Shown: positions 3,201 through 64,000 of the stretch, piece by piece
How positions within the stretch are numbered: position 1 is the stretch's first letter
Layout of the letters: every line of letters starts with the position of its first letter
From: Geosiphon pyriformis uo1
Taxonomy: Eukaryota > Fungi > Glomeromycota
Assembly: GCA_016748015.1 (NCBI GenBank)
Contig: JAAOMT010000523.1
Coordinates: 680,156-744,155 of the forward strand
Reading direction: 5' to 3'
DNA length: 64,000 nt
Position numbers and translations under genes: made by a program
The notes under the pieces: generated by a model
Databases searched by the model: none
What the model saw: the letters and a program-made list of their open reading frames with translations, nothing else
Told to the model about the DNA's origin: nothing

Positions 3201-5816
3201 GCTATACAAGAAGATGTTTACCAAATAAAAGAAGCTGAATACATTGAATACACTATGAAATTAGCTGGATTCAACTATAAAAATAAAGTAAAAACATATC
3301 ACCAAATTGCAAGTCACACTTATTCAATCCAAGAAGCTTAAATTCAATGATTAAAGCAAATAAACATTCAATTGTGTAAAGAATACATCATGTCTTGTAA
3401 TAACAAATGATGTCCAAAATGCTATGCTTTTAACATCCTTTTGCTTAGCAAAAATAACCAAGAGGAAATCAAGTTTGGAGAACATATGTCAAAAAAAAAA
3501 TTGCAACAACTTCAATCTATTTTCTTGAAAACCAATCAGTCTTACAACTCAAGTACTTTGATAACAATGGCCAAGAAATTAAACCAGAAAAAGCTTACAA
3601 AATTGATGCAGAATATGATCTATAATGTTCAAGAAAAAACACTTTAGTTCTTCAACCAAAATCCTTAACAAAAATCAATCTCAAAATTGTTCTCAAAATT
3701 TCACCAGGAGTTATAGTTCAAATTGCTTCTTGATTATCTTAGCCAGCAAAAAATCAACATTAAAGAAGGAGTTATAAATGCAAAATATACTGGAGATATT
3801 ACCATTATGCTACAAAATAAAACTGAAAACTATTTAAAATTAAACATACAAAAAAGATTGTTTAAGCAATTTATCTACTCTTAATCAACATTTTAGAGTT
3901 ATAATTAGTTAGTAACAGAGAACAATTAGGCAAAAGTAAAAGAGGAACTCAAGATTTTGGTTTAACTGGATGATTTACAGTTTCAGTAAATATAGCTCTC
4001 AATACACAGAATAAATCTTACCAGATTTTTTAACTTCTTTAACCAATTACTATATTATCTTTTGAAGAACATTACGAAATCTACACTTGCTTAAAACCTA
4101 CTACCACCCAACAAATCTTTAAATCCAATAAACAAATCTGTTTAAAGCATGAAATTTTAATTCCAAATGTTTATATACCAAAAGAAATAAAAAAATTTCG
4201 AATTACTTTTTATAATCCCAACAATTACCTTATTATTTTATTAAATAAATTAAAAATTAGAATTATACATAGCAACATTTTTCAAGATAAAACTCCTCAG
4301 ATGGTCAGCAATTTTATCGAAATTGTGAAACATATCTTACTTTCAAACTTAAACATTATTCTCATTACTAAAAACTATCATATTTTGGAAGAAAAACTCT
4401 CTTAAATCAATATGGATTTTTTAGAATCATTACAACAAAGACAAATAAAACAGTTAATTGCTAAATACATTGATATATTTGCCAAAGATAACTATGATCT
4501 TGGAAAAACTAATATTGTCTAATATCAGATTTACACAAGAAATGCTCTATCAAAATATTAACAAGCTTATTAAATACCACCTATCAGCCACCAATTCATT
4601 AGAGAAGAAGTCCAAAAAATGCTCAATAATGGATTGATTTAACCATTAAAAAGTTCTTGGGTCTTATCAGTAGTGCTAATTAAAAAAAAAATAGAAAAAT
4701 CAGATTTTGTGTTAATTATTGCCAACTGAATAGTGTGATAATTAAAGATGCCTATCCTTTTCCAAGAATTAATAACATGCTAGATGCTCTAAGAAAAGCC
4801 AAGTTCTTTTTAACTTTAGACTTAGAAAGTGAATACTGACAAGTTAAAATAGACCCAAAAGATTATTTCAAAACAGTATTTATTACCCAAAAAGAAAACT
4901 ATGAATTCAATATTATGCCTTTTAAACTCTGCAATGCATTAGTAACATTTCAATAACTCATGAATGTTGTATATAAAAAACTTTTATGACAATTAGTAGT
5001 TGTCTATTTGAATAATACTGATGTGTACTCACCAAGCTTTGAAGCTTATTTTATCTATCTGTAAGAAGTTTTTTAATGATTATGGAAAGCAAAATTTAAG
5101 TTGAATATTAAAAAATATTAATTTAGAAAAACAAGTTTAATTTTTTTTGAACATATTGTTAGCAAAAATAGAATCAAACCAAATCTTGGAACAATCAGTG
5201 CTGTTAAAAACTTTTAAACTCCCAAAAATATCACAGAGCTATAAGGATTTGTAGAATTAGCCTTTTACTATCAAAAATTTATAAAAAAATTCTCAAAAAT
5301 TGCCAAACTATTCAATTATCTCACCAACAAAAACATGCCATATCAATAGACTGAAGAATAACAAAAAGCCTTTAAAATTTTTAAAACAAAATTAACAACA
5401 GCTTCAGTTTTTGCTTATCTAAATTTCAGCAAATAGTCTTAACTAGTCATTGATGCTTTATACATAGTATTTGGTACAATTCTATTACAATTGGATGAAA
5501 ATGGCCAGAAACAAGTTATTGTTTATGCCAGTAGGACACTCAAATCAACAAAACTCAAATATAGTTCAACTGAATTAGAAGCTACCACAGTCATTTAGAC
5601 TTTTAAACATTTTCAATAATACTTAAAGAATAGAAAAGAATTTGACATAATAACTAACAATATTGGTCTCAAATGGCTTAATAAAAAAAAATCTGAACAA
5701 AGTCCCAAACAATCTCAATGAAATGATTTCCTAACAGACTACAAATATATTGTATACTACAAACCAGACAAATTACATACAAATGTAAATAGTCTTTCCA
5801 AATAAGACAAAATTAG
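300..5816 (+). pseudogene. gag-PR-Cys-rich-dUTPase-RT-RNaseH polyprotein remnant
   Basis: ORF 2207-2686 is a retropepsin (PIQLILDSK...YQVLVKNNWL); dUTPase remnant ~3570-3965; RT remnant (FCVNYCQLN, DAYPFPRI, VVVYLNN); RNase H ends TNVNSLS..QN*; many stops and frameshifts; start approximate. Confidence 0.9.
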
Positions 5817-5865
5817 AATTTACACCAATAAACTACTAATTTAACAACAATTAACAACAAAAACA

Positions 5866-7255
5866 ATAGATCTTGAAAACTATAACAACATTAAAAACTA
5901 TTTGGAAACTTTTATCATGCCAAAAAATTGGTCTTCAAGTAAAAAACATTGATTACAACATTAATTAAAACAATATTTTATACACCACAACAAAATTTAT
6001 TATTGAAACTATAGAAATCCAATTAACCTACTTAGATTAGTACAAAAAAACAAAAAAAAACAATCCTTTATAACATGTATACAGACTTTTCATCAGCATA
6101 CTTAAAAAGAAATAAAACAATTCAAAAAACTTTTAAACATTATTTTTGGCCTCACATGCAAAAAAACATTCAACAATATGTAGAATCTTGTAATAGTTGT
6201 TAAAAAAAAGAAGGAACTTGCTTCATGGAACCTTTAAATTCAATCAAAATTGGACAACTTTTTGATAGAGTTAGAATTGATTTAGTCGAACTATTATCTA
6301 TTACAACCCAAAGAAATTGTTATATTGCAGTTGCAATAAATTATCTCACTAAATGGCCTGAAGTTAGAGCCATTCAAAAAACAGATGCAAAATCAGTAAC
6401 AAATTTCATTTATGAAGACATTATTTGTAAACATGAATGCCCAATTGAACTTTTATCTAATCAAAAAACACATTTTGTGAACAACTTAATACAAAAAATT
6501 TGTGAATAATTCAATATCAAAAGATCTCTATTATCACCTTATTACCTTCAAACAAATAGACTTGTAGAATATTTCAATAGAACATTGTGTGAATCTTTAG
6601 CCAAAGTCTCAACTGATTTTAAGCAGAAATGTAATATATTTATTTTATTAGTGTTATTAGCATATAGAACACTAAAACAAGATATTATAAAACACATACC
6701 ATTTGATTTTATGTATAGAAGAACAGCAACATTACCAATTAATTTCACAGTAGAAACATATTTAGTACAACCAATCAATAAAGAAAACTTTCAAAAAACA
6801 CTCCAAAGAAGAGCATACACTTTTTTTAATACACTGGAAAGAAAAAAACAAATAGCAGCCACTTATATTAAACACTTTCAAGCCCAACAAAAAGAAAACA
6901 TAACAACAAATTGCCACCAGTTATCAACAAATTTAAAGTTAGAAATAAAGTTTTCTTACATAAAACTAAGGCTGAAAAACAATAGAATAGAAAATTTGAA
7001 CATAAATAGGATAAACTATTTTATATTCACAAAATTCTAGACAATAATTTATACAAATTAAGACTTAATAACAAGGTTTTAGCAAAAGTTGTACATAGAA
7101 ATTAATTAAAATACTATTATTCCAGAACAAATTCTGAATTATTAATTTTACAAATTGTTATACATTCTCCTTTAATTAATTCTGAAAATATTCTTCAAAA
7201 TTTAGAACCAATAGTTATAATAGAACAACAACCAAAACTTGAATACTTAATTTAA
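5866..7255 (+). pseudogene. Integrase remnant in its own ORF (ATG decayed to ATA)
   Basis: FDRVRIDLV, YLTKWPEVRAI, LLAYRT, HIPFDFMYRR; homologous to 51153-52381 and 62300-63685. Confidence 0.9.
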
Positions 7256-7427
7256 TATTTTTACAATAATCTCTTTAAATAATACACAAAACATAAAACA
7301 AAAATAGTAAATAATTACAAAAAACATCCAAATCTAAAAACAAATAAAATTGTATACCCAAAAATAATTTTCTTTATTTTTTTTTCAAAATTTTATTTAT
7401 TAGTTAGTTATTTATTATCAAAAATAA

Positions 7428-8109
7428 ATGTTAGCCTTGAAAACACTTCCTGACTTATATATAATAATTAATAGAAGTCAAATTAATTACATTCAGAAAA
7501 AAATCACAGCCTTAGTAGTAAACAATTCTCAAAATTATTATTCCTATAAAAGAAGCACAAGAAATTACTTTGAAAATCAATTACCAAAACTTTCAAAACA
7601 AGCTTTAAAAGAAAATTTTTTAATTGCCTCTATTAATATTTTACCAAATGCCACAATCCAACAAAAACTTCTATTATTTCTCAATGAACAGAACAATAAA
7701 TATACTCTTATCTATAGATATTTTTATATTGAAAAAACACTTTATAAACGAAAAATAGAACTTGAAGCAACAAACATTACTCTTGAAGCTATACAAAAAC
7801 AAATCTACAATAAATTTAAGACAACAGTTGGATCAACAAATACTTGCTACAAACTTAGAGCAGCTTTTAGACTCTATGACTTATTCAATACTTGCTACAA
7901 ACTTAGAACAGCTTTTAGACTCTATGACTTATTCAATACTTGCAAAAATGTCCTATAAAATCCAATACTTTACCCAATAAAAATTCAGTACATTAAAAAG
8001 CTTACAGAACTGAAATTTCAACAATTTTCAGACCAAATTACCACAATTATTTTGAACTATTATCTTAACATTACAAACAATACTTGATTTTAATGGAACT
8101 CAGTTTTGA
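7428..8109 (+). pseudogene. ORF3 (accessory protein between integrase and 3' LTR), family A copy 1
   Basis: ORF 7428-7958 clearly homologous to 61814-62134; continues past stops to the PPT. Confidence 0.8.
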
Positions 8110-8120
8110 GAAGAAGATTA

Positions 8121-9079
8121 TGTTACCAGTAGAATTTTAGCTATTAATTAGCATAAAATTACCCTTATAATTCCTATTATTAATTAGTATATATTATTAT
8201 CATTTTTATTATTACTTATTATTTAATCAAATTATCAAATATCATCATTTAATTAATAATTCAATTTGTATTATAGAAATTAAGATAATCAAATTATACA
8301 ATACTTTAAACCATTTAATATTCAAAAATTCGCCAAAATTAGCAGAAATTGGCCGAAATAATTAATAGTTTGTGGAAATAATTTGTAGTTTGCTGAAATA
8401 TATCTTTAATTTGCCAAAATTAAAGCAAAAAAAAAGTGCAAGTTTAAAGACTAATACTATAACAAGTTTTATAAAAAAAAAGCTTCTTTTTTCAAGAAAA
8501 TATATCTTACTTTTAAATATCTTAATTAAAACAAATTATCTCTTACACATTCTTACAAAAAGCAAATAAAAATTAAAAATATTTGAAAACCAAATCCTTA
8601 ATTATTCTACTTGAAATTCACAAAAAATCCAATTAACATTTTAAAATTAATTAGCTACCAATTTCAATAATCTGTTAGTAACCCCAGATTTTGATAGAAA
8701 ACAATTCTCTTAACAATATTTTATTTCTTTTATATTTTTTTTATTTTTCTTTACTTTTTTTATTATAAACATTAGGGTAGTTTACAGACAAAATTCCTGT
8801 AGAAGAGTTGATTTTCACAACAAAATAACTACATATTTTTTAGTGAGTTTCCAGACAAGCAATTCTTGGAAAAAAGTTAATGTTTACTACAACATAACTA
8901 CACAAAGCAACTGGCATGAAATTAGCCATTCTACTTATAAGCCCAACAATTTAAATTATAGAAGATAATTTGAAGATAAATTCAGTTATTAAAGGTTTAA
9001 CTACTTTCAGAAAACGTGAATTCACAACAAACAGACATTAACAACATTAAAAAAAAGAGACCAAAAATCTCCAATAATA
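8121..9079 (+). repeat. 3' LTR, family A (~959 bp)
   Basis: Starts TGTTACC after PPT GAGAAGAAGA; homologous to the reverse complement of 60504-61487. Confidence 0.9.
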
Positions 9080-35949: not shown

Positions 35950-37416
35950 TTGGACCATCTTTCTATAAATCCAGCTGAAATTTTTCAATTATTTCTGGCC
36001 TTCATAAAAATGCATGGTTTTTTGCAGACCAGAATATTTTCGACTTGCTGTATACGCTCGGCAACCAGTACTCTTTTTTCCCTTAAATTAAAACCCTCTA
36101 TAATACGAGATCACAAGTCAAAATTCGGCGAGCTTTTTCGAGGCTACTGTTTACTCCTGCCCCTTAAACGATATTTACCACCGAAAACGCACCTTTTGAA
36201 TTCTCATCAAAAGTCTACAATTCATACATATAGTCGCAAAGGAAGACTTCTCCCTCCTCTACCGACTGTTACTCCCGTTTTTAAGCAGGGTTTCACTATT
36301 TTCTTCCGAGGTCTCAAACATGTTTTAATAGGCTCTATAGCATTTTTAACTTTATTGTTCATAGTATCGCGTGGCGTTCACCTCTATATTGAGCATTTTT
36401 ATTACTCTACTCCTTCCTCAATTCCTTCAAAAGCGCGTGATTTCCTTCGTGCAGCCTATATTTTTGAAGAATGGTATCCAAACCTGGAAAACGCCCAGAA
36501 AATCCTTTACGATGCTTTTATAATTATTCAAAAAGAAAAAGAATTACCTCCAACTGATCCAATAGTGTTGGATATTTTGCTCCGAATCGCAAATAATGCC
36601 ATGAGGCTTGGAAACCTTCGAGAAGCAAATTTAGATTATAAACGCATTTTTGATGTCTTAATTTATCAAGATGATGAGGTGAACAGGAAAAAAGCGATAG
36701 ATGTTGCGAAAAAAGCCGCGAAAATCTCTGTTAAAGTCAAAGATTTTCGATTGGCAGAGGATTATTTGATATGGACGATTGAAACATTGAACAAAGAACT
36801 TCACACTAACAAAAACTTATCATATAGTGGGAATAATATTGAATCCCAAGTTTTCAAAAGGACTACATCTCAAGACTCCTTTATTAATTTGCAATCAAAG
36901 ATGAGCATGGATCTAATTCAATGTACAGTAATGCTTGCTGGAGTTTATGCTACACAAAAGCAGTTCGATAAAGCACTCCCTTTATACTTAGGCTCTCTTA
37001 AGATGCTAGTAGAAAGAAAGGCTACAGAAAAAGATCCTGAAAAGAAGGATTTATCAAAAGAATTGACAGATTCTGATAGTTTTCATCATTGCGGAGATGC
37101 AATCATAATGGGGCATTTAGGAGAAATCTTTTATGCCATGGGAAAAGTAGAAGAAGCTATGGGTTGGTTTCAAAAAGGATTTTTGATTGCAAAACGCGGG
37201 AGTGGTATAAGAAATTGCGATGAATGTGCAGGTGTTATACTTAATAATCTTGGGCTGATAAATGAAAAGAAAGGATTATTGGAAGATGCTAAAGCCTTTT
37301 ATTCTCAAGCACTTTCATTTGCTGAAATCGCCGATGATGTTGAAGGTCGTGAAGAGTTTTCTACGAATTTACATCGAATACAAATCCATGACGAGGAAAA
37401 TAAAAGTTCTGAATAA
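35950..37416 (+). CDS. Intronless TPR protein, probably mitochondrial inner membrane (Mgr3/TTC19-like); likely ATG at 36010
   Basis: 488-aa ORF; basic/Ser-rich presequence-like N-terminus, one TM segment, TPR-like helices (GHLGEIFYAMG, LNNLGLI..A..FY..AL). Confidence 0.75.
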   Translation: MDHLSINPAEIFQLFLAFIKMHGFLQTRIFSTCCIRSATSTLFSLKLKPSIIRDHKSKFGELFRGYCLLLPLKRYLPPKTHLLNSHQKSTIHTYSRKGRLLPPLPTVTPVFKQGFTIFFRGLKHVLIGSIAFLTLLFIVSRGVHLYIEHFYYSTPSSIPSKARDFLRAAYIFEEWYPNLENAQKILYDAFIIIQKEKELPPTDPIVLDILLRIANNAMRLGNLREANLDYKRIFDVLIYQDDEVNRKKAIDVAKKAAKISVKVKDFRLAEDYLIWTIETLNKELHTNKNLSYSGNNIESQVFKRTTSQDSFINLQSKMSMDLIQCTVMLAGVYATQKQFDKALPLYLGSLKMLVERKATEKDPEKKDLSKELTDSDSFHHCGDAIIMGHLGEIFYAMGKVEEAMGWFQKGFLIAKRGSGIRNCDECAGVILNNLGLINEKKGLLEDAKAFYSQALSFAEIADDVEGREEFSTNLHRIQIHDEENKSSE

Positions 37417-42554: not shown

Positions 42555-43420
42555 TGTTACGGGATGGTTTTCTTGTTATATTTAATTGCTGATATCCCGC
42601 TTTAATTGCAATCAGTCTTTCATGAGTTCCTCAATTCTATTTGTGTAATAATGTCACTGTTATACTGAAGGCTTTCTTTTTATTGTTGCGATGTAAGTTA
42701 TTCTTTAATTCTTGATTGTTGTGTGTGTTTATGTACTCCTTCTCAGAGGCTGAACTGAAATCTACCCACTGTCTGGGGTCTTCTCTGAGGCTATCCTTGC
42801 AATTGCCTGATGTGTTTCTCTAATCTAGAAACACAGAATGTTAATGGTCTTTAGCGCTTTTTTAATTCTCACAATAAAGCTTTTATCAATTAGTAACAAT
42901 GTGAATAATCTTGATCAAGAATTATTCTTCCAAGGGATTCAGTTGATGAATGATAGTTTCATTCAATAAATAATACAAGTAAGTTTCTTAATACTTTGGG
43001 TTGTGATAGTTCAGTTTTAAATATTCTTTTTCATTTCTTTTTGATTTTAAAGGTTTCTTGGGATATTTAATTTGAAAGTATGATTTAAAGTGGAGTTTGT
43101 TGGATAAAATTGGATCTATTGCTTGATAAGTTATGATTTTTATTACTTGATTGATTCTTTCCCAATATTAAAACTACTGTATATATACATGTTTGTAGTT
43201 CTACGAGAAAATACTTTCTTTTTGATATTTCAACCTAGTGCTTGCTGCTATCACCAGTTGGTGTTGGCTGCTATTGTGAACTGGTGCTTGCCACTATCAC
43301 GAGATGGTGTTTGCTACTATGTTAATCATTACCTTTCTAAGATTATTACTGTGCTATATTATGATTGAATAGTTTGTATTATTTTTATGATTCTTTTTGC
43401 TAAATTCTTAAACCGTAACA
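42555..43420 (-). repeat. Family B LTR in inverted orientation with non-matching flanks
   Basis: Reverse complement of 13902-14768; flanks CTGC and GCAT. Confidence 0.95.
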
Positions 43421-44533
43421 GCATCTACATAGTATATTTTGAATATTGCAAGTGAATTTTTTGTGATCAATGACATCTTAATTAATAATGATAAGATAGT
43501 AGTGATTTCTATCAATCAAGAGGTTAGGAATGCTTCACTATTAATTAATAGATCGCCAATTTTAATTGCTAAAAAGGGTAAGTTACACCAATATTTGGGT
43601 ATCTTTCTGTCAACTGAGAGTTTTTTTAAGCCCAGTTTGGCTCAAGCCCATAAGGATGTCAGGTTTTTTTCTAATATAGTATTAAGAAAAGCTATTATAG
43701 ACAAGCAATCCTGTTATTTGGTTTTGGCAGTTTTGCAACTCATTGTTAGCTATTGTATACAGTTCAGTTTTGTTGCTTTAGATGTGTGTTATAAGTGAGA
43801 TATTATAATTAGAAAAGGTCTTAGAGCCAAAGTTGGTTTACTATATGACTTCTCCAGTAAGGTCTTGCATTACTCTTCTTTATATGGTTTAAAGCTCTTT
43901 AAGCAAGTGCAGTCTGAAAGAAAACTGGTGTCACTAATTTTATTTTCTAATGGCCATGGCATTTTTGAACATTTATTTAATCATAGATTTTTGGATTTGC
44001 AAGTTCTGGGATGGTCTCTTTTGAATCCTTTGCAGTTTTCTGTTAAGTTGCGTGTTAGTCTTATTAACAATTTTTTGGCAGAGGTGGTAAAGATTTTTTT
44101 GGAGAATGAGTTATCTTTAGCAAACAATTTACCTTGTGCCTTTTATGGGTCTGGCAATTTCCTGATGTCTGGCATTCTGAGTCAGTCTTTGTATTACAAA
44201 TCCATTTTTTCATTGAAGCATTTTGGTGTTGCTTTTAGTGACAGACTTCTTGACAAAAAAGAAAAGATGATAGACTGGAAACATTTTGGCATTGGAAGTG
44301 ATTGAATCCAAGGGGTTCTGTGTCTTACTGGTTTTCTTTGACATCTGATTTTATGAACAATTATATTTCTTTAGGGGTCAGAGCTGCTGCTGCTACTAAG
44401 GAGAATGTATTGAGTGTTTTGGATTCTGATAAGTTCTTTGAAATTCATAATAGTCTACTGGAGGTATGATCTGATTGTATTGAGGTTTATACAGATGGAT
44501 CCTTGAGATGTGCTGGTTCTGTTGGGGTGGCGG
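43421..44533 (+). mobile_element. Middle segment of the LINE (RT C-terminus to RNase H start), inverted relative to the rest
   Basis: AST*YILNIASEFF..HQYLGIFL..VYTDGSLRCAGSVGVA. Confidence 0.88.
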
Positions 44534-45032
44534 TGTTACGGTTTAAGAATTTAGCAAAAAGAATCATAAAAATAATACAAACTATTTAATCATAATATAG
44601 CACAGTAATAATCTTAAAAAGGTAATGATTAACATAGTAGCAAACACCATCTCGCAATAGTGGCAAGCACCAGTTCACAATAGCAGCCAACACCAACTGG
44701 TGATAGCAGCAAGCACCAGGTTGAAATATCAAAAAGAAAGTATTTTCTTGTAAAACTACAAACATGTATATATACAGTAGTTTTAATATTGGGCAAGAAT
44801 CAATCAAGTAATAAAAATCATAACTTATCAAGCAATAGATCCAATTTTATCCAACAAACTCTACTTTAAATCATACTTTCAAATTAAATATCCCAAGAAA
44901 TCTTTAAAATCAAAAAGAAATGAAAAAGAATATTTAAAACTGAACTNNNNNNNNNNNNNNNNNNNNAGAAAAGAAAATCAAAAAGGAAATAATAATTAGC
45001 AATAATTCATTGCTAAAAAGGAAAAGACAAAA

Positions 45033-48000
45033 GTGGTGACAAAAACCCCTAATCTTACTGTTTTTGAATTCTGCCGTGCTATTTACACACAAAATCAAAG
45101 TGATCTTAGATTACCAGAAGGGTGTTGTCCAGCAGAATCTGTCCTCACTTATTATATCAATGCCAGAATAAATTATCATATAGGAAAGGAAGAAGAACCA
45201 CACGACGCAAAACTTGGATTGTATAGAGAATTATCACAATACACTACAAAAGAAGTAGCAGTAATAGCCGCAACTATTGTTAAAATCTATCGAGAAATTG
45301 AGCAATACACCAACGAAAATTTTCCAATATCCACAGGAAACACTAGGGAATGCGCCAACAAAACCAAAGAAAATTTAGAAACTAATCAAGAAAGTAACCA
45401 GCAAAAACTAGAAACACCAGCTCAAACGCCAAAGAAAACTGTCACTCAATCAATAAAGAAACAACATATTTATTCACCAGAAGATAAATCNNNNNNNNNN
45501 NNNNNNNNNNAAATATCCCAAGAAATCTTTAAAATCAAAAAGAAATGAAAAAGAATATTTAAAACTGAACTATCACAACCCAAAGTATTAAGAAACTTAC
45601 TTGTATTATTTATTGAATGAAACTATCATTCATCAACTGAATCCCTTGGAAGAATAATTCTTGATTAAGATTATTCACGTTGTTACTAATTGATAAAAGC
45701 TTTATTGTGAGAATTAGAAAAGCGCTAAAGACCATTAACATTCTGTGTTTCTAGATTAGAGAAACACATCAGGCAATTGCAAGGATAGCCTCAAAGAAGA
45801 CCCCAGACAGTGGGTAGATTTCAGTTCAGCCTCTGAGAAGGAGTACATAAACACACACAACAATCAAGAATTAAAGAATAACTTACATCGCAACAGTAAA
45901 AAGAAAGCCTTCAGTGTAACAGTGACATTATCACACAAATAGAATTGAGGAACTCATGAAAGACTGATTGCAATTAAAGCGGGATATCAGCAATTAAATA
46001 TAACAAGAAAACCATCCCGTAACATNNNNNNNNNNNNNNNNNNNNGAAAGTAACCAGCAAAAACTAGAAACACCAGCTCAAACGCCAAAGAAAACTGTCA
46101 CTCAATCAATAAAGAAACAACGTATTTATTCACCAGAAGATAAATCATACCATTTTTCACTAGAAAATAAGATACAAATTCCATTAGGAGCTGCATCATC
46201 ATCAACATCAACTCCACAAATGCCAAAAACTCCTAGTTATATTGATAAAATTAAACAACGTAACTGGGGAGACATACCAATTACAGGAGGATATTCATCA
46301 CTATTCCAAAACCCTCTTTTTCAGCCAAAATTTTAGAACAGAGTTTGAAAACCGTGAAGAGGAGTCTGAATCAGAATCCGAAAAAGAGACCAGCAAAAAA
46401 ACAATCACAAGACCAGTTACTGGAACAAGCAGCCAGTCCAAAAACCAAGAAACTCGTGATCAAGAAGAAGAACCGGATATAAGGGAAGCCACCTTTAGGA
46501 ACACTCAAGGAAATATCATCCCACGTCCTCTTAGACCAATAAACCCACCAGCAGAAAACAGCAACGAAATAACCACACCATACATTGCAAAACTAACAGA
46601 TTTCTCAGGAAAGGAAGAAGAAACGGATGTGCACACATGGCTCAGAGAAGCACAAAAAGCCATCCAGGCAAATAACTGGAATGACCAAAGAGCAATTCAA
46701 ACATTACCTTTCTTCCTGAAAGGCACAGCCGACTCATGGTATCAAAGCCTGGAAACAAAACCCACGAGCTTCGCCGAATTTAAAAATGCACTCCTGGAGT
46801 ATTTTAGCGACCCAAACGCCGTAATCCAACTACAGAACAAATTCAATACTATCAAGCAAAATACCGGTGAAACTGTTACCCAATACCTTGCTCGATTCAA
46901 TCGAATTTGCCATCAGATTGAAGCGATTGAACAAGGATACTACACTGATCCTCAGGTTTTAAATCAGTTTATTAGAGGATTAAAAAGCAGCATTTTAGGA
47001 AGAGTACGCCCTGCCCACCCTAATTCCTTACCAGAAGCCATTATGCTCGCCAGAGCCCTTGAATCGGCTAAGAAAGAAGCTAACCATAGTCAAATGGTTA
47101 ACATGGTAATGGAGGAAAATAAGACAGAAACATTAGAGAAAAGAGTAACGCGATTAGGAGAAGAACTCTCTAAGAAAATAGAAAGTTACCTCATCCCGGA
47201 TCCGAGAAAAAATACATACCAACCACCCCAAAGACGCAGCCAGGAAGTCAGCGACAGTCGAAATAATCACCTGTCGCGCCAGGAATTTAGAACAGAAACA
47301 CGCGCCTGCCATTTTTGCAAACGCGTAGGACATTTGATTAGTCAATGTCGAACGCGAATGATGCAGAAAGCATGCAAAAATAATTACTACACGCCACCCC
47401 AAATGCCCAGAAACCAGTACACACCAATACCATGCCAATATCCCACCACGTATTAAAATCAAGGAGCTTACCAGCAACAGCCCATGATAGCCAACCTGAA
47501 TTAGCGTTCCGAGGCCCGAAATCAGCCCATGTGGAACCAGAACGCGTTGGTCCAGAGGAATCCAAACCGTGCTGGAACCAATCAGCAAACCAATCCAAAC
47601 TACCAAAATTATCAACAAACTTACTTTAATATACTGGAAAACCTGATCATTGGAAACAATGATGGTAGAAACATAAACAGAACCAAGAATTCCTCCAAAT
47701 TGAGCCAGACAATACCACCAGCAGTTGCCACCNNNNNNNNNNNNNNNNNNNNNNNNNGCATAGTAATACCTACAAAAGTATTAGTAATGGACGCTACACA
47801 ATATCAAGCGTTAGTAGGGAATGACTGGCTAACAAAAGCCAACGCCACCCTAGACTGGACCACCCAAGAGCTTCTGATCAATTATAATGGCCACCAGGCC
47901 AAAATTCCAGCCACCTGTGGCCACTTCCAAAAACCCAGCACCAACCAAAGACCTACCTTCGAATTTGAGGAAAATCCAGCACTACCAGCCATTGAAACCT

Positions 48001-51000
48001 ATCAGCTCTCTTAGGCTGATGACCAAAGAACAGGACTACCAGCCGTACCAACGTGGACCAGCGAAGAAAGATCTGAATAGAACCAGGTAAGTTCACGAAG
48101 AAACCACCAGTGACGCAGACCAAAGCTAGAATGCTCGGTTTGCAAGAAGAAACTCTCGTCTATGACTGCGTGCAGCACACCGGACGAAGACCCAAGAAAT
48201 CCCACTCACTACTATTGTAACCGTTGTAACAAAGAAAAATACGGTTACCCAGAAAGACACGGAAAATGGGACGAGGAACCATGCCTCACTTGTGGAGAAC
48301 CGTTACCAAGAGAGTGCGACTAGAACGACTTACCAGGCAGAGGAGGAACGTGTGACGCAACTTGCCAATACACGATCCTCATCTGTGACTGGGTAAGAGG
48401 AGGAACGCCGTTCGAAGCAGCGTTCAACAGAGCGTTAAAAAGACTACAGCACTACCCACACGACGAGGACGAGTTGTACAACACCACACAAGCCAAAGTA
48501 AGAGGAGGAACCGCCAAAGAAATACGACGTTGGAAAGAGTCAGCCGAAGTAGCCGACGAAGTTGCCAGCTACAACATGTTCGACCCAGTGGACGAATTCC
48601 AGGACTACTACCAACAACTATGCCCCACTCGACAAGAGCAAAAACAATACCTCGTCCAAATTAACACTTATCTCTGCGAAAACTGTCTCATCCCGTGCCA
48701 AAGTCAGTGCTGTGAAGAGTGTCAAGACGAAAGGGACTTAGAAAGAAAAATGGAAATTGAGAATCAGCAGTCTCAAAATCAATCAATAAATCAACAAGAC
48801 TCACCTGACGGTCCCAAGTCAGAAAAATTTGTAGCCTATACCGACCTAGAACAGGTGACCGACATCTGATACTTCGACAACGGGCACTTAGGAATAATAC
48901 CTGAAAGAGCCCATCCAACTGATGCCGGATTCGATCTACGTTATCCAGAAGACCAATCCACAATGTTACCACCCAGGAGCATCACCAAAATCGACCTAAA
49001 AATAGCGGTTGAAATTCCGCCAGGAATAATGGTTCAAATGGCGTCATGATCAAGTCTTGCGAAAAAAAGGAATAAGCATTCAAGGAGGAGTAATTAACTC
49101 TGGATACACTGGAAATTTGATGGTTTTGCTACAGAATAATTCAGAAAAGTCTTATACCATTGAATCTAAGAAAAAGATTGCACAAGCAATTTTCCTACCA
49201 TTGGTAAAAATTGGGAAATTCGTGTCAGTGAAAAATCGTGAGGAATTGTCACAAACAACGAGAGGAACTTTTGGTTTCGGATCGACAGGAAAAGGAATTG
49301 AAGCGAATTTCACTGAAACAATAGGGGAAAAAGGCAAAGTAATTAAAAATGAGCAGTTCATCATGCTCCTACTATATGGAAAATCAGAAATAAGAATAAA
49401 AAGGACAATTAAAGAAAAAGACCTAATATTTGAGCCCTACCCAGAAACTTGCCAACAGTTTCTCATAGGACTTACTAACCTTTTTATTCCAGTTGATAAA
49501 GCTCAATAGATAAAAATTTCTATCGCAAACACCACAGAAGAACCCGTCTACATTCCGGAAGATACCATCATTGGATACCTCGGAACGGAGCTAGAAAACG
49601 TGTCAACACCACAAGAAATTCTAAATTTCCCAGAAATCACCCTCTACTGTGAACTCACTTCAATAAATTGGCAACAACTGGTAGAATGCTATCAATTTAC
49701 GCCAGAAAAATTGGCCAAATTAAACATTAGAACAATGGATCCCGACCAACAGTGACAATTAAAAGCATTAATTTTAAAATACTCTGATATATTTTCAAGA
49801 AATGGCGAATTTGGAAGAACCAACTTGGTTCAACACCAAATCCCCACTGGAGATGCCAGACCTGAAAAACAACGCGCTTACCGTGTCCCACCAATGGAGC
49901 ATAATTTTATCAGAGAAGAAGTCCAAAGCATGTTGGAAAAAGGAATAATACAACCATCAATGAGCCCATGGTCCTCACCAGTTGTTTTAGTAAGGAAAAA
50001 GAACGGAAAAATTAGATTTTGCGTCGACTATCGCAAACTAAACAGCAAAACAACCAAAGACTCATACCCAATACCGTTAATTGACGAAATCTTCGATGTT
50101 TTTGGAGGAGCAAAATGGTTTTCTATACTGGACTTGACCAGTGGGTACTAACAAGTAGAAATGGACCCAAAGGACAGGCATAAAACAGCATTGACAACAC
50201 AAAATGGCAATTATGAGTTCAATGTAATGCCATTTGGATTAACAAACACTCCCGCAACATTCCAAAGACTAATGGACGTAATTTACTCCGGAATCCTGTG
50301 GCAATCTATTATTGTCTACTTGGATGATACAAATGTTTTCTCGTCAAAATTCATGGATCATCTCCAATATTTACAACAAGTTTTTGAGAGATTGAGACAC
50401 GCTGGACTTAAACTAAATCTAGAAAAATGTTTCTTTGGGAAAAATGAGCTAGCATTTTTAGGACACGTAGTTGGAAAAGATGGAATAAAACCAGATCCAT
50501 CAAAAATAGACAAAGTGAAAAATTTTCCAGTACCTCGAAACGTCTCAGAAGTTAGAAGCTTTTTAGGACTCGCATTTTACTACCACTGCTTTGTAGAAAA
50601 CTTTTCAAACATCACCAAACTCCTTAATTACCTACTATCTAAAAATGTGAAGTTTGAATAGACTGAAGCACAACAAAAAGCTTTTGAGTACCTTAGACAA
50701 AAGCTCATTGAATCACCAATAATAATCTATCCGAATTTCAACAAGAAATTCATTTTGGCCACAGATGCCTCTGGAACTGGACTTGGAGCCATTCTGTCAC
50801 AAAAAGATGATAATGGAAGAGAACGTGTAATTGCTTATGCCAGCAGAAATCTCAGTACGGCAGAACAAAACTATGCAGCACATGAACTTGAATGCTTAGC
50901 AGTAGTCTGGAGTTGTGTTCACTTTGACACATATTTACGGTACCAACCCTTTGAGATTATGACAGATCATAGAGGTCTGGTCTGGTTAAATAACAAGAAA

Positions 51001-51123
51001 GCGCTAAAAGGAAAATACGCCAGATGGTCACAAACATTAGCACCATACGATTATATTATCAAATACAAAGAAAGTACCAAAAATGCTAATGCCAACTGTT
51101 TGTCAAGAATGAGACACACATAA
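45033..51123 (+). pseudogene. gag-PR-Cys-rich-dUTPase-RT-RNaseH polyprotein, family B (some stops, gaps)
   Basis: ORFs 45033, 46242, 47529, 48474, 49057, 49825, 50161 and 50755; ends ANANCLSRMRHT*. Confidence 0.92.
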
Positions 51124-51152
51124 AAATCACCAACCCACCCGTCACAACAACA

Positions 51153-52381
51153 ATGAACAACCACCTTTACAAAAACCTCAGCCAATACTTGGAAACACTA
51201 CAAATAGACGAAGAAATGCCAGTAAAAGAGCTAATTAAGCTCCAAAAATTAGCAAAACACTATTTCATCCAAAATCACATATTTTATTACCAGAATCGAC
51301 AAAATCCAGATAATCCATTAAGAGTTATAACCACGGATGAAAAAGAAACTATCTTATTTAACATGCACTCAGATATTCATTCAGGCCACTTTGGAAAAAC
51401 AGCAACCATCCAACGTGCAACTAGCCATTACTATTGGCCAAAAATGAGCTCAGACATAATCCAATACATAAGAAATTGTGACCCATGCCAACAAAGAGGA
51501 GGAGCAAAAACAATGGAATTATTAAGACCAATAAAAGTTGGACAGCCATTTGACAGAATCGGAATTGATTTAGTTGGACTCTTAACAATAACAACAAGAA
51601 ACAACCGTTATATTGCAGTAGCCATGGACTATCTCACCAAATGGCCAGAAGCTAGAGCTATTAAAACAGCTGATGCTATTTCCGTAGCTCAATTCGTACA
51701 TGAAGACTTAATTTNNNNNNNNNNNNNNNNNNNNNNNNNNNNNNNNNNNNNNNNNNNNNNNNNNNNNNNNNNNNNNNNNNNNCAGCAGTACTACTAGCAT
51801 ATAGAACAGTAAAACAAGATACTACACAATTCACACCGTTCGAACTAGTTTATGGAAGAAAAGCCACATTACCCATTGAACTTACTATTCCAACTTATCC
51901 AAGTGACACTATCACGGAAGCAACATTCCAGGAAACACTACTTAGAAGAACATACGAATTAATGGGAACTTTAGAAAACAAAAGAAGAAAAGCAGCACAA
52001 AATATTGAACAATCACAAAAACAACAAAAAGTGAGACATAATAACCAGTTACCAGATAATATAATTAGCTACAAAATTGGAGATAAAGTATTGTTGCATC
52101 GTACAAAAATGGAAAAACAGTGGAGTGGAAAATTTGATCACAAGTGGGATGGACCATTTTATATTCACAAAATACTTGGAAATGGAGCATACAAGCTAAG
52201 ACTAGATGATAAAATATTAAGAAAAGCAGCACATGATAACCGGCTGAAATTCTATTACAGTAAACCAGTAATAACAACAAAAACACCCAGAATTGGAACA
52301 CAATTACCTTTAATTCTACCAGAACAAATTCCACGAGATTTAGAACCAATAGTTTTAATTGAACATTATTCAAAAAGATAA
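51153..52381 (+). CDS. Integrase in a separate ORF (HHCC, catalytic core, GPY/F-type C-terminus; gap inside)
   Basis: Own ATG; HSDIHSGH..CDPC, RIGIDLVG, DYLTKWPEA, KWDGPFYIHKILGNGAYKL. Confidence 0.88.
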
Positions 52382-52465
52382 TTAATCTTAGATCATGACA
52401 AAAATGATTTAACAACCATAAAAATGCATACAAAAGATTCCAAAATAGCAGTCAAAATTAAAACA

Positions 52466-53111
52466 ATGATACTTATTCCAGAAAACATCAACAATATAAC
52501 TCAACAATTAGTTGAAAGCTTACAACAATTAAAATCCGATCTGGAAATCACAGTTAATAGCTCCAAAATAACATACATAAAAAGAACAATAGAAAATCCA
52601 AAAACAAGAAAAGAACATAATTTTGAACCATATAATATTGCCAAATATAACAACAAATTTATCAGCAAAGTTATTGAAAAATTAGAGATAGCATTGGGCA
52701 ATACATTAATAATGAAAAAAATAGAAATAAGTGAATTAACACCAGACACATTTAGCAACTTGAAAACGAAATTTCCAATTAATTACTGTTATTATCAACT
52801 AGGAAAGCACTTAAACATACAAACATTATACTCAAAAGACTCAACTAGAGTGTTTGACAAAACAACTATCCAACTATTAGAACCTTTCATTGGAAAAACC
52901 AACACTACATTCCATTCAAAAACAGTTTACAGAATTTTCAAAGCATTTGAAAACTGTCACAAATTATTGTTGGACCCAACCATAAACATAATAACAACCA
53001 ACAGTATTGGACGACTTACCACCTCGCAATTTCAAGAATTACAACAACAAATTAATCACACAGTATTGAACCACTATAGTAACTTAGAATTTAATGAAGA
53101 AATTAACTTCG
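52466..53111 (+). CDS. ORF3 accessory protein, family B (3' end in gap; alternative ATG at 52424)
   Basis: Open for over 210 codons; distant homolog of family A ORF3. Confidence 0.75.
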
Positions 53112-53622
53112 NNNNNNNNNNNNNNNNNNNNNNNNNNNNNNNNNNNNNNNNNNNNNNNNNNNNNNNNNNNNNNNNNNNNNAAGTATTAAGAAACTTACTT
53201 GTATTATTTATTGAATGAAACTATCATTCATCAACTGAATCTCTTGGAAGAATAATTCTTGATCAAGATTATTCACATTGTTACTAATTGATAAAAGCTT
53301 TATTGTGAGAATTAAAAAAGCACTAAAGACCATTAACATTCTGTGTTTCTAGATTAGAGAAACACATCAGGCAATTGCAAGAATAGCCTCAGAGAAGACC
53401 CCAAACAGTGGGTAGATTTCAGTTCAGCCTCTGAGAAAGAGTACATAAACACACACAACAATTAAGAATTAAAGAATAACTTACATCGCAACAGTAAAAA
53501 GAAAGCCTTCAGTGTAACAGTAACATTATCACACAAATAGAATTGAGGAACTCACGAAAGACTGATTGCAATTAAAGCGGGATATTAGCAATTAAATATA
53601 ACAAGAAAACCATCCCGTAACA

Positions 53623-57000: not shown

Positions 57001-60000
57001 CAACCAATCACCAGCCCCTTTTACCAACTCACTGGATTATGCTCTCGGAATTTGGATACTGGTTCCAACCAAAACCCGAATTCCCAACACTATTTAAGTC
57101 TTTTGGTTACTCCAGAAAATGCCACTACCAACAACCCAAAACCCCATTAACAAATAACACTTACCAACAACATCCTACCAGCAACCATTACCAATGACAA
57201 ATCATTGGCCACCATTTTTCCCTTTGAACTCGAGGAAACCACAATAGTACTGCTATTCAGTAGAGCTGTTCTAGAAGAAAAACCCATTACAGCTATGTAC
57301 ACTAATATGAAAGTTGATGGACACTTCATCAAACTGATCTTAGATAGTAGATCAGCTGGCAGCATCATCACCAGACAACTCATGGATCAATTAAGTTGCC
57401 AAGTTGATCACACTGCCAGTGCTAGAATTATCACAGCTGATGGAGCAACCAAAACACCCATTGGAGAGATTGACAATCTATTCATAGAAGTCAATGACAT
57501 TATTATACCAATTAAGGTACTGGTAATAGAAGCCACCCAGTACCAGGCTCTCATTGGCAATGACTGGCTGTTTAAAGCCAGCACTATTATGAACTGGAAC
57601 ATACAAGAGGTCCAACTCAGTCAACATAACCAACATACAAGGGTACCAGCCATCTGTGGTCACTTTAAATCAAATCATCTCTCCACACCATTGATTGAAT
57701 TGAAAGAAGAAAAACTGAAACCTACCTGGGAGGCATACCAAGTGTCGTGGGCTGACAATAACCACAACAAACTGCTGCTAATATTATTGTGAGACAAGTC
57801 AGTAAAAGGAAAACAAAAAGAAAAACTCACTTGGAAAACTGACAATCTGACATGGATTGACAATGATGACAGTAAACCAACAGTAAATTGGGAGTGGAAA
57901 AAAGATAAAGGAAGAGACAAAGAGAAAAGAAAAGAAAAAGACACTATCCAAGCCAACAATACTTATATTCCAGACACTTATGCTTTATCACAACAGTCTA
58001 CCTATTGCTGACCCAAATTAATATGCATTAATTGCGGCAAAAAATTGTCATCAATGGGTGTATGCTGTGGCAATAATAAGGAATACCAAATGGCGACCAA
58101 ATTCTACTACTGTATATGTGTTATAGAACACTTTGGATAACCGAAAAGACAAGAAAAATGGGACAATGAATCTTGTCTAGCTTGTGGTGAAACCTTACTC
58201 GATGAAAGAATGTGGAACAACATTCCTGGTCAAGGAGGAATATGTGACACTTTGTGTCAGTACACAATCCTTATCAGCAACTGGGTCAAGAAAGAAACTC
58301 CAATAGAAGCTGCTTGAAGAAAAGCTGTGCAATGATTAAACAGTTGTCCACATGACAATGATGAGATCTGGAAAATGGTAATGGCCAAGATAGAAGGAGC
58401 ATCATTTGAAGAAATCAGAGAAATCAAAAACAACCCACCAGAACTCATAGAACTTAACTGGGACCCAGAACCAGTTATAAATCTTCTAGATCCAAAACAA
58501 TTTCATGAACACTACCAAGAGTTGACATCCACAAAAGAAGAGCAAAAGCAACACCTAGAATAATTGAATACTCAACTATGTCAACACTGCCTAATTCCTT
58601 GTGATTTTCAATATTGTAATGAGTGTGACCTTATTTACAATCCACCACCATGCATGATCTACACGATCCCAGAAGAAAACAAACCAATGAGCAGCTGCAC
58701 ATCGGAATCGGAATCAGTTTTCAATCCTGATTCAAACTCTAACAACAACGATGATGAAAACAATGGTTCCAGCTCCACTTTAATTAGCAATACAAATTAT
58801 GACAATTCAAACTCTGATTCATATCCCAAAACATTTATCACACTTCTTGACCTTACCAAAGAGCAGGAACTGAAATGGTTTAGTGATAATAATGAAGGTA
58901 TCATGCCTGAATGCATGCACAATACTGATGCAGAGTTTGATCTGAGATATCCCAGAAAAGATCCCATTAAATTGAAACCACATTTGCACACCTGCATTAA
59001 TCTCAAAGTAGCATTGGAAATCCCAGCAACAACAATGGTTCAACTAGCATTCAGGAGTAGTTTAGCAAAAAAAAGAATAAACATCAAAGGAAAAATAATT
59101 GATGCAGGATATGTAGGAAATATCATTGCTATGCTACAAAATGATTCAGAAAAAGCATACACTATAGACCCAAATAAAAAAATAGCACAGGCAATATTCC
59201 TATTTCTGGTAAAAATAGCTCAGTTAGTGTCAGTAAGAAACAGAGTCAAACAAACAATACTTGAAAAAGAAGTATTAAAATTAATTCAAAATGAAGATTT
59301 CAACAGAGCTCAATATTAAAAAGGAAGAAATATTGTTACTCATAAAAAAAAACAGTTATAGAAAATAGTAGACCAATAAGCAAGTAGTAGTTAACATGTG
59401 AGCATATTGTTCAACAATATGAAGCAATGTCAGAAATTATAGCACATTGCTTAGCAATATAAAGCAATGTCAAAAATCAAGGCATATTGCTCAGCAATGT
59501 AGAGTGATGTTAAGAAAATATGACACATTGCTCAGCAATGTGAGCATTACTCAAGAAATCATAGCACATTGCTCGGGAATGTGAGCAATTTTATAGAACA
59601 TCAATTATGTATATATAGTGATAGCATTAGAAGTAGAAAGAGCAGAATTCATCAGTTAGAAACCTTCTACATTACAAATATCAATAAATAATTATTTACT
59701 ATCTCAATTCACTCTCTACTATCAGCACTTTATGTTGATAGTAATTAATACTTAACCACACTAGAACAATAGCTCTTAATCATGGCTATTGATAGGATAC
59801 TAACTTGTAAATCGCTTTGGCTTATTTCTTACATTTCTTTATTTTCTTTTATTTCTTTTATTTGATTTTGTTGTATACTAATTGATTAAAAGCGCTGAGT
59901 TATTGATGTCACAGATAGCTTGGTAAAAGACCCAGAGATAAGAGTAGCATTATATATATTATTGAATAGCTTACCAGAAGAACACGACTATCAGAATAAA

Positions 60001-60503: not shown

Positions 60504-61499
60504 TGTTACCAGAGGTTTTTGGTCTTTTCTTAGCTCTTGTATGTTTGTTGTAATGCTGTTAATTCACGATTATAGGAAGTGTTTGAACCTCTGATAACTG
60601 AATTTATCTTCAAATTATCTCCTATAATTTGAACTGCTGGGCTTATAAGTGGAATGGCCAAGTCCGTGCCAGTTACTTTGTATAGTTACATTGTAGTAAA
60701 CGTCAACTCTTTTCCAGGAATTGCTCGTCTGGAAGCTTACTAAAAATATGTAGTTATTTTGCTATGAAAGTCAACTTTTCTACAGGAATTCTTGTCCATA
60801 GGCTACCCAAATAATTTATAATAAGAAAAGAAAGAGAATAAAAGAAATGTAAAAAAAAAGTAAAACTGATGATTTATAGAAGTCGTTTCGGATCCAGGCC
60901 TGGAAATGCTTTAACAATCTACTGAAATTGGTAGTTAATCAATTTCAACCTGTTAGTAGAAATTGGTTAATTTCAAAGGAAATAATTAAAAATTTGGCTT
61001 TTTGAATTTATTTGATATTTATTTTGTTTTTGTGTGTAAAGGATGATTCTAATTATTAAATCTGAAGTAAAATACATTTTCTCGAAAAGAAAAGCTCTTC
61101 TTTTATACAACTTGTTGTAACACTATTTTATGAACTTGAACTTTGCTCTTTTCTACAATTTTGCTGAACTAAAGATATATTTTGGTGAACTACAAGTTAT
61201 TTCTGCGAACTATTAGATATTTTGGTACACTATCAATTATTTCGGCAAATTTCTACAAATTTCGGCAAACTTTTAAATGTTATATATTTCAGGGTATTAC
61301 ATGATTGATTATCGCACTTAGGTTACATTTGTGTTATATACAAATTGGATTATTAATTAAATAATAATTTTGGACATTTTGCTAATGTAATAAGTAATAA
61401 TTTGAAATAATAATATATGCTAATTAATGATAAAATTTATAAGGGTAATTTTATGCTAAACAATATTTCTAATTTTGTCTGATAACATAACCTCCTCCT

Positions 61500-62176
61500 C
61501 AAGACTGAGCTCCATCAAAGTCCAAGTACTGTCTGTAATTTCCAGATAATAATCCAAAATTATTGAAGAAATTTGGTCTGAAAATTGTTGAAATTTCAGT
61601 TCTGTAAGCTTTTCAATGTATTGAATCTTTAAAGGCTGTAAAATTGGGTTTTGTAGGACATTTTCACAGGTGTGGAATAGGTCATAAAGTTTAAGAGCAG
61701 CTCTTAGTTTATAATGACTGTTTGTAGGTCCAGCTGTTGTCTTGAATTGATTGTGGAGTTGTTTCTAAATAGCTTCTTTTGTGAGATTTGCTGCTGTAAG
61801 CTCCCATTTTTGTTCATGAAGTGTTTTTTTCAATGTAAAAATATCTATATATTAGAGTATAGTTGTAGTTTTTGTCATTAAGACACAGTTGAAGTTTTTG
61901 TTGAATAGTAGCATTCGGTGGAATACTAATAGGAGTGAGCATTAAGTTTTCTCTTAAAGCAAGCTTTAGAAGTTCTGGCAGGTGAATTTCAGAATAACTT
62001 CTTGTGTTTTTCTTATACGGGTGATATTTTTGTGCATTTGGGGCTAAATTTGTAACTACTTCTGTTTGGGTATAATTAATGTGGTTTCCAGTAACAATAA
62101 TAGATAATTCGGGTATTGTTTTTAAAGCTAACATTAGTTTTTGGGATAATTGTTAAATGTTTTGAGGAATAGACAT
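61500..62176 (-). pseudogene. ORF3 accessory protein, family A copy 2
   Basis: MSIPQNI*QLSQKLMLALKT.. aligns with family B MILIPENINNITQQLVESL..; contains stops and a frameshift. Confidence 0.8.
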
Positions 62177-62299: not shown

Positions 62300-63685
62300 T
62301 TAAGTGTTCAAGTTGAGAGGTTGTTCAATGACAACTATTGGTTCTAATTTTCGGAGAATATCTTTGGGATTGATTAAAGGGGAATGTGTACCAATTTGTG
62401 GAATTAATGATTCAGGATTGTTTCTGGAATTATAGTGTTTCAAATGATCTCCATGTGCAACTTTTGCTAGGATTTTGTCATTAAGTCTTAGCTTGTATGA
62501 TCCGTTGCCTAGGACTTCATGAATAAAGAATGGTCCATCTCATTTATTTTCAAATTTTCCACTCCATTGTTTTTTAGCTTTAGTTCTGTGTAAGAGAACT
62601 TTGTTTCTGATTTTAAATCCATTGGTAACTGGAGGCAATTTGTCATTATGCCATTCTTTTTGTTGAGCTTGGGAGTGTTTAATATGGGTGGCTGCTATTT
62701 GTCATTTTCTTTTTAACATGCTAAGCAAAGTGTAGGCTCTTTATTGTAGTGTTTCTTAGAAATTGTTTTTATCGATTGTTTGTGTTGGGTATGTTTTCAC
62801 AGTGAAACTAATTGGTAATGTTGTTGTTCTTTCATAAGTTAAATTAAATGGTGTGTGTTTTGTGGTATCTTGTTTTAGTGTTCTATATGCCAGTAACACT
62901 GATGGAATAAAGAAATCCCATTTTTGCTTAAAATTGGTTGAGACTTTGGCTAATGATTCACACAATGTTTTGTTGAAACATTCTACAAGTCCATTTGTTT
63001 GTGGATAGTAGGACAAAAATAATGGTCTCTTAACATTAAATTGTCCACAAATTTTCTGGATTAAATTGTTCACAAAATGTGTTTCTTGATCAGATAAAAG
63101 TTCTATTGGGCATCTATGTTTACAAATGATGTCTTCATAGATGAAATTTATTACTGATTTCACATCTGCTCATTGAATGGCTCTGGCTTTAGGCCATTTG
63201 GTAAGATAGTCTACAGCTACTGCAATATAACAGTTTCCTTGGTTTGTGATAGGGAGTGGTCCGACTAAATCAATACCAATTCGGTCAAATGGCTGTTCAA
63301 TTTTGATTGGGTTTAAAGGTTCTGTAGGGCGAGTTTCTCTTCTTCTTTGACAACTATTACAAGACTTAACATATTCATAAATGTCTTTTTTCATTTGAGG
63401 CCAAAAATAATATGCTAGTGTTCTCTGGGTGGTGCTTTCTTTTCCTAGGTGTGCTGATGAAGGGTCTGAGTGCATGTTATATAAAATGGTTTCTTTTTCA
63501 TGTTCTTGTATTAATCTAAGCGGATTGTCTGGGTTTCTGAAGTTTCGATAATAAATAATGTTGTTGTGTAAGAAGTATTGTTTGGCTTGTTGTTGTAACC
63601 AATGTTTTTCATTTGGGGACCAATCTGTTGGAATTGTTAATGTCTCCAGATATTGTTTAAGATTGTTGTAATTTTCAGGGTTCAT
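62300..63685 (-). pseudogene. Integrase in a separate ORF, family A copy 2
   Basis: MNPENY.., HSDPSSAH..CNSC, RIGIDLVGP, LLSDQETHF, PQTNGLVE. Confidence 0.92.
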
Positions 63686-64000
63686 TGTTTGTTGTTTTGT
63701 TGTTAATTCAAATGAGTGTTGTTTTTATGTTCTAATCTTGCCTCATTCTTGAGAGACAATCAACATTGGTGTGGAGTTTTCCTGGTTTGTGATGTACAAT
63801 GTATCAGTAGTTGGCTAAAAATCCTGTCCATCAAGTTTGTTTGGCATTTAGCTAAGTGTTTTTGTTTTGAAGCTATTTGAGTCCAATATTATCAGTGATA
63901 ATATCGAATTTTTTGGGTCTGAGGTAAAAGTTGAAGTAATGTAGGGCCCAGATTACTGCTGCAGTTTTTAATTCTGTTGCAGGGTAGTTCTTTTCAGCTG

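Follow-up and report, generated by a model that had tools for sequence, protein, structure and literature searches.

In textbook LTR retroelements and retroviruses, integrase (IN) enters the particle as part of Gag-Pol. For the Metaviridae, which comprise Ty3/Gypsy elements such as Ty3, the ICTV description places IN inside pol and gives solely gag-pol, gag plus pol or gag plus pol plus env as layouts (PMC7879559), and the available part of a survey of fungal LTR elements likewise has IN within pol (PMC3248453). Ogre/Bianca plant elements carry their polyprotein in two ORFs parted by a non-coding spacer (PMC6317226), Tat elements offer a partial parallel with an additional RNase H in a separate ORF (PMC10508981), and in LINE-1 (ORF2), SART1 and CaMV an enzyme ORF lies downstream of a long ORF, overlapping it or separated from it by a spacer (PMC5972666, PMC10275272). 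Foamy viruses leave an essential enzyme, Pol, unfused to Gag and package it another way (PMC7828637).

The window analysed here, a 64,000-nt stretch of the Geosiphon pyriformis genome, contains elements of two families, A and B, which share with Ty3/Gypsy elements the LTRs, the polypurine tract (PPT), a Ty3-type capsid, the PR-RT-RH-IN order and an H2C2-DDE-GPY/F integrase. They differ from canonical Metaviridae in that IN is a separate ORF and that the third gene encodes a predicted helical protein of ~145 aa without a Pfam match to env. Because integrase lies outside pol, we class them as a Ty3/Gypsy-derived variant and not as canonical members. The PPT precedes the 3' LTR in both A copies, at 61500 (minus strand) and 8108, and in the related locus L004, and is N-masked in family B.

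Table 1. Element parts and junctions of families A and B, in positions of the window.
Feature	Position	Strand	Remarks
Family B 5' LTR, TG...CA, ~870 nt	44534..46024	+	split by assembly gaps into 44534-44946 and 45511-46024
Family B gag, 5' part	about 45006-45490	+	scaffolded between the two halves of the 5' LTR
Family B N gap			directly after the 5' LTR, at the expected tRNA primer binding site
Family B gag (Ty3 capsid), decayed	46188..47456	+	Pfam PF19259, PF03732
Family B protease region, linker and dUTPase, decayed	47505..49509	+	dUTPase is PF00692
Family B RT-RNase H, C-terminus ...LSRMRHT	49756..51120	+	PF00078, PF17917
Family B antisense intron, GT-AG	50982..51138	-	joint 50981>51139 in run X2, absent in run X1
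Family B gag-pol stop TAA, directly after RNase H	51121..51123	+	
Family B spacer, 29 nt, G-poor	51124..51152	+	without ATG or AG; purine at -3 of the IN start
Family B stand-alone integrase ORF, own Met (ATG 51153-55)	51153..52381	+	N gap 51715-51782
Family B ORF3, ATG 52424 or 52466	52424..53111	+	N gap hides end and PPT
Family B 3' LTR, visible part	53181..53622	+	
Family A copy 2 TAG 63734-32 and 46-nt spacer	63686..63734	-	TAA 63727-25 closes the IN frame
Family A copy 2 integrase ORF	62300..63685	-	461 codons, interrupted by 5 decay stops in frame
Family A copy 2 ORF3, broken	61491..62176	-	terminates in the PPT ahead of the 3' LTR
Family A copy 1 TAG 5814-16, 49-nt spacer, ATA 5866-68 (decayed start)	5814..5868	+	
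Family A copy 1, remains of integrase and ORF3	5866..8122	+	reach the PPT at 8108

The original prediction, made from the letters of the window, was that RNase H (RH) ends in a stop that is followed by a spacer and a new ATG for integrase, and the positions were verified at all three junctions. The pol frame of family B ends in ...CLSRMRHT and TAA 51121-23, and that of family A copy 2 in ...DCLSRMRQD, with the integrase ATG at 63685-83 on the minus strand. In both, the pol stop stands two codons past LSRMR and the IN ATG falls at the same residue. The TAG of A copy 1 is homologous to these stops; one base has apparently been lost a few codons upstream of it, so that its RH and IN frames now coincide and the TAG is out of frame. 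The family B integrase comprises a YPYY-type N-terminus, H2C2, a DDE core and an SH3/GPY-F region, and the family B protease was called via similarity to window 57151-57789, which matches aspartyl protease families. Each copy in the window has decayed and carries in-frame stops in pol as well as in IN; the window alone is therefore insufficient as proof, and evidence from outside it is needed.

Several other features of the window were recorded. A dUTPase lies between protease and RT (49030-49509, 58564-59319 and about 3740-3860) and is also found in some relatives (P0169, P0171, P0182), and P0205 has a NUDIX domain. Solo family B LTR copies are located at 13902-14768 and 42555-43420, and the 42555-53622 cluster, judging from its flanks, may reflect an inversion, or else mis-scaffolding, between LTRs in opposed orientation. 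A host gene island (19185-37416) lies between the repeats, with exons recognised by eye as ribosomal protein L6-like, eIF3e-like, PIG-A-like and mitochondrial-carrier-like, plus a TPR protein.

As a family-level variant check, 5,876 contigs of run X1 were placed on window 49700-52600. The window's private nonsense changes (50150, 50660) appeared as rows in which the majority of contigs carry the other letter. The stop and the ATG behaved as fixed in the family, as predicted, with no variant at either site (51121-23, 51153-55) in the 40 rows listed out of 205, and the complete indel table of the 5,876 contigs contained no indel in the spacer. A contig of run X2 covering 51139-51197 showed a single base difference, in the spacer.

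Beyond the family, the first residue is Met in 119 of the 120 IN homologs listed, 98 of which start exactly at the query Met1 and 14 more at the internal Met17; these proteins are 253-807 aa long only, and the search is unable to show fused forms. Met1 is invariant in an alignment of 65 sequences. Among 120 longer RT-RH homologs, IN is present in 55 and absent in 65, and the latter end at most 5 residues past the RH match (33), at most 30 residues past it (5) or have a longer non-IN tail (27). All 14 RT-RH homologs with at least 53% identity are without IN. We then turned to nucleotide loci: 83 were fetched, and both the RH end and the IN start were found in 44 (45 rows). All 15 loci with at least 390 bits on the IN profile are split, 13 with an ATG at Met1, and the remaining 30 rows, below 390 bits, comprise 25 fused and 5 unclear cases; the cut was set after seeing the data, and the profile was made from free-standing integrases, and RT-RH trees therefore serve as the independent check. 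Intact split elements include L004, L017 and L036, and L017 is a full-length element with 435-nt LTRs that are 96.8% identical, intact ORFs and the split.

In a FastTree reconstruction of RT-RH (145 rows), a clade of 64 rows, all IN-less and including the window copy, was recovered with a support of 0.908. Next to it, with low support, come four more rows without IN and the fused P0216; L035 and P0233 fall outside the IN-less clade. A quick mixture-model tree of 39 rows, from which the split L035 was omitted since it groups elsewhere, gave one split clade of 18 (SH-aLRT 82), which P0216 adjoins, and in an LG+G4 tree of 60 rows the split label needs 4 changes. Split rows thus cluster on the RT-RH trees, but clade support is moderate. 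A single origin of the split is likely on the basis of these trees. We are nearly certain that the three-ORF architecture with a separate integrase is real and not a product of decay.

Judged by its sequence features, the lineage is one of Ty3/Gypsy-derived LTR retrotransposons, and Geosiphon and Rhizophagus are the sources of its named members; for IN, the relatives that carry a name belong to Rhizophagus irregularis and R. clarus. Both top atlas clusters for IN are eukaryotic, with Mucoromycota the commonest, and a scan of viral contigs returned 3 weak, unrelated loci.

Some members depart from the general pattern. One subgroup of the split lineage (P0159, P0164, P0202, P0217, L004, L017) has 200-600 extra residues after RNase H, for which no Pfam match was found in the members scanned. 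In the close fused relative P0216 / P0312, the YPYY-type N-terminus is kept in frame after an acidic linker, which makes it a candidate for an ancestral or re-fused state. The locus L035:1355 combines a split IN of the clade type with an RT that groups elsewhere, and L056:7266-8335 has an IN without an upstream RT match and with a frame gap; L035 and L056 are possibly recombinant or Ginger-like elements.

The tricistronic layout that had been proposed (gag-pol, IN, ORF3) was borne out. A homologous ORF follows IN in nine loci, with a weak pairwise match to the window ORF3, and a profile that includes the window ORF3 collected 463 representatives at E 0.001 or better. Since this ORF3 family is conserved, the tricistronic layout is a trait of the lineage. 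Close ORF3 relatives are 9 matches of up to 95% identity, all named Geosiphon pyriformis. Extra ORFs of plant elements are, by contrast, described as heterogeneous in the available text of PMC6317226. The AlphaFold model of ORF3 (~145 aa) is all-helical and compact, with a pLDDT of 96. We found no Pfam match common to the members and none to env, the best PDB sequence match had an E of 0.08, and Foldseek gave no match at E 0.001 or better. The best VIA hit (Z 5.3, rmsd 3.4, 69 aligned) lies among common helical bundles, and overall ORF3 is without a clear match, TAV-like proteins included, in Pfam, PDB and BFVD. Such an absence of matches is evidence for neither a new fold nor a function.

To describe the RH-IN junction, we compiled 15 cases (13 loci, window B and window A2). 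The spacers measure -8, -4, 29, 30, 39, 46, 62, 63, 74, 89, 110, 163, 278, 365 and 727 nt. The two negative values are start-stop overlaps, the -4 case in the form ATGA. Nine of the ten spacers of 29-163 nt are without ATG (1 observed against 5.9 expected), and the three long ones (278, 365 and 727 nt) contain 22 ATGs, with about 23 expected. A purine occupies position -3 of the IN start in 13 of the 15 junctions, the closest upstream ATG is at least 44 nt away in 13, and in 12 the folding of the 60 nt ahead of the ATG is weaker than the average for upstream RH windows.

We consider the following mechanism. A single full-length RNA would carry gag-pol (PR-RT-RH), a stop, integrase with its own ATG, a stop and ORF3. 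Ribosomes would terminate after RNase H, scan the short unstructured spacer and restart at the integrase ATG. By analogy with known cases, we give about an even chance to integrase being made in this way, by termination-reinitiation with scanning, which accounts best for the overlaps, for short spacers without ATG and for the irrelevance of phase. In CaMV, reinitiation spans from a few nt to 700 nt and needs no cis signals, and in LINE-1 it is described across 63 nt (PMC5972666); reinitiation of this distance-tolerant kind is established for CaMV and has been proposed for LINE-1 (PMC5972666, PMC10275272), and a start-stop overlap is the usual mark of translational coupling (PMC10275272). The comparison has its limits: LINE-1 and SART1 are non-LTR elements and CaMV is a pararetrovirus, while here we deal with an LTR element whose ORF3 has no TAV-like match and for which reinitiation is only proposed. 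TURBS-type reinitiation relies on a UGGGA motif upstream of the stop and on adjacent start and stop; here, UGGGA is present within 120 nt upstream of the pol stop in 0 of 15 junctions, and start and stop are adjacent in merely 2. It is doubtful, though conceivable, that ORF3 acts in trans, as the element's own factor, either to permit reinitiation or to bring free integrase to the particle, in what would be a polycistronic class of LTR elements.

The 22 ATGs of the long spacers mean that linear scanning from the pol stop would not pass them, and members whose ATG-rich spacers run to several hundred bases would require a further route, for example an internal promoter. Production of both integrase and ORF3 from subgenomic mRNAs, started at internal promoters that lie either within the RH 3' end or within the spacer, is a possible general explanation that we rate as somewhat unlikely. 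Long ATG-rich spacers with one TATA-like hexamer each occur in L003, L017, L028 and L035, but such hexamers are expected by chance in AT-rich DNA. The element L017 is intact despite its 727-nt spacer, and the distance to the upstream ATG and the strong start context also speak for this route: leaders that are free of ATG, weakly folded and favourable in start context would suit the 5' UTR of a subgenomic RNA just as well. Against it, the spacers of 29-30 nt and the overlapping start-stops would place the promoter inside the RH coding sequence, and overlaps of this kind usually signal translational coupling (PMC10275272).

The suggestion that the CAA-rich spacer acts as an internal-entry site or as an enhancer similar to TMV omega fared less well, and we regard it as very unlikely. 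The spacers are literally CAA-rich, as had been stated, but modestly so, since the three spacers of the window reach merely the top 6-9% of same-length windows within their own A/C-rich elements. CAA is enriched about 2-fold in the last 25 nt before the ATG (25 against 11.9 expected, 15 junctions), and the window spacers are G-poor and weakly folded. However, 3 of the 15 leaders are free of CAA, the spacers of L002 and L010 are T-rich, and two loci have no spacer at all, which makes CAA weak as a defining signal.

Splicing, which would yield either an RH-IN fusion by removal of an Ogre-like intron or a spliced IN mRNA as in foamy viruses, is highly unlikely. Precedents exist in the intron between the ORFs of Ogre (PMC6317226) and in the spliced pol mRNA of foamy viruses (PMC7828637), and a distant acceptor inside RH could be used. 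Removal of the spacer as an intron, the Ogre-type arrangement, cannot restore one ORF in 11 of the 15 junctions, including window B and A2, where an in-frame GT-AG join is impossible; furthermore, no YAG lies within 40 nt of the IN ATG in 11 of 15. Among the X2 joints listed (15 of 17 in one listing; contigs of one sample), none had plus-strand GT..AG ends and no sense splice into IN was seen. A depletion of sense-strand splice donors was considered and rejected: 19 were counted against 110 in base shuffles, but 68 against 90 in synonymous-codon shuffles, and fused elements share the depletion (155 against 188).

A programmed frameshift or readthrough that produces a normal Pol-IN polyprotein is extremely unlikely. 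Three of the 15 junctions (window B, L023, L036) keep the IN frame open ahead of the pol stop, and just one in-frame stop is present in L010, but an IN-frame stop lies at or after the pol stop in 12. The differing spacer phase that had been held against a shared frameshift extends to all three phases (0, 1 and 2 occur 3, 4 and 8 times). No conserved signal was seen: the three open windows have no slippery heptamer, and stop contexts differ. Recognisable recoding contexts do occur further upstream in the same lineage and none at the RH-IN junction, and recoding would leave the invariant Met unexplained. The four-ORF layouts of L003, L014, L017 and L023 were considered as further reinitiation and are better explained by recoding (readthrough or frameshift) ahead of RT. 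One in-frame UGA, with CUA after it, lies between protease and RT at L003:870, L017:3358 and L023:1585, which we take to be a readthrough-type context, and in L014 the frame changes at gag|pro near a U-UUA-AAA heptamer.

Finally, chance nonsense and indel decay of a continuous pol is scarcely credible: decay stops abound in the window copies, and the B junction taken by itself might pass for a two-base slip in a short repeat, but the stop position and the Met are common to families and genera, the spacer is free of indels in the family contigs, and the intact split elements contradict a chance nonsense mutation as the origin of the split, in line with what had been argued from the window.

Integrase would reach the cDNA outside Gag-Pol, by binding the genomic RNA or the capsid or by meeting the cDNA after uncoating. 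By analogy, we infer that its packaging may resemble that of foamy-virus Pol, recruited through genomic RNA. According to the available description, foamy viruses separate the whole of Pol by splicing and still cleave IN from it (PMC7828637), whereas here IN alone is separate.

Run X2 comes from the same sample as X1, is labelled 'DNA?' and was treated as RNA because of intron-shaped joints only; run X3 gave no placed contigs. In window 45685-51139, 13 of its joints have minus-strand intron ends, 11 of them exact GT-AG and 2 off by one base. These antisense joints span LTR, gag, PR, dUTPase, RT and RH and have typical donors, and the donor of the intron listed in Table 1 sits in the RH-IN spacer. 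Run X1 lacks the three antisense joints located in 49700-52600. These observations indicate a long antisense RNA, spliced several times and derived from a family B copy that is less decayed; this RNA could feed RNA silencing. Joined, the antisense exons of the window copy hold no long ORF, and the longest one that starts with Met has 83 aa. As for IN expression, the antisense RNA says nothing positive, and contigs cannot show 5' ends. Other X2 contigs join IN or RT straight to the end of ORF3 and the PPT region (51477 to about 53105, the joint with an 8-nt microhomology, and 49660 to 53045) and are probably internally deleted derivatives.

The integrase itself resembles those of Ginger1 and of YPYY-bearing Gypsy elements, with which it shares a stand-alone protein of ~420 aa, a YPYY-type N-terminus, H2C2, DDE and GPY/F (PMC2836005). 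Conserved residues are Y12, P19, Y/F37, Y/F45, H72, H79, C109, C112, D139, D199, E235 and P-Y/F. The YPYY/Ginger1 motifs were assigned by eye from the description in PMC2836005; in that account, Bao et al. place the YPYY integrase group near Ginger1. Ginger1 is bounded by TIRs, has no RT and carries a C-terminal OTU or Ulp1 domain, whereas here IN lies downstream of RT-RH within LTRs, and no OTU or Ulp1 domain was found in P0008. In addition, the lineage differs from Gmr1-like elements, in which IN is upstream of RT: the IN-first loci L072, L073 and L080 form a separate group.

In the literature searched, we found no paper that describes integrase as a separate ORF of LTR retrotransposons; consensus elements of this kind may be on record in Repbase, GyDB, Dfam, subscription journals or supplements, which lay outside the search. 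Papers on transposable elements of AM fungi describe Gypsy/LTR expansions, including in Geosiphonaceae, with the layout absent from the available text (10.1101/2021.03.30.436303, PMC11952901). The split-integrase lineage is thus apparently undescribed.

A successful high-copy lineage with a separately translated integrase would mean that coupling to Gag-Pol is dispensable. It raises the questions of how fungal ribosomes get to two further ORFs on one RNA and by what means an unattached integrase locates its cDNA. The finding bears on the Gypsy-to-Ginger1 question posed in PMC2836005: if integrase is indeed expressed as proposed, a free YPYY integrase with its own start would be an intermediate type from which Ginger1 DNA transposons could arise. 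Annotation is affected as well, as pipelines that demand RT and IN in one ORF would label intact elements defective. The lineage also accounts for many host-gene annotations as 'integrase core domain' in Rhizophagus and for 'hypothetical proteins' in Geosiphon.
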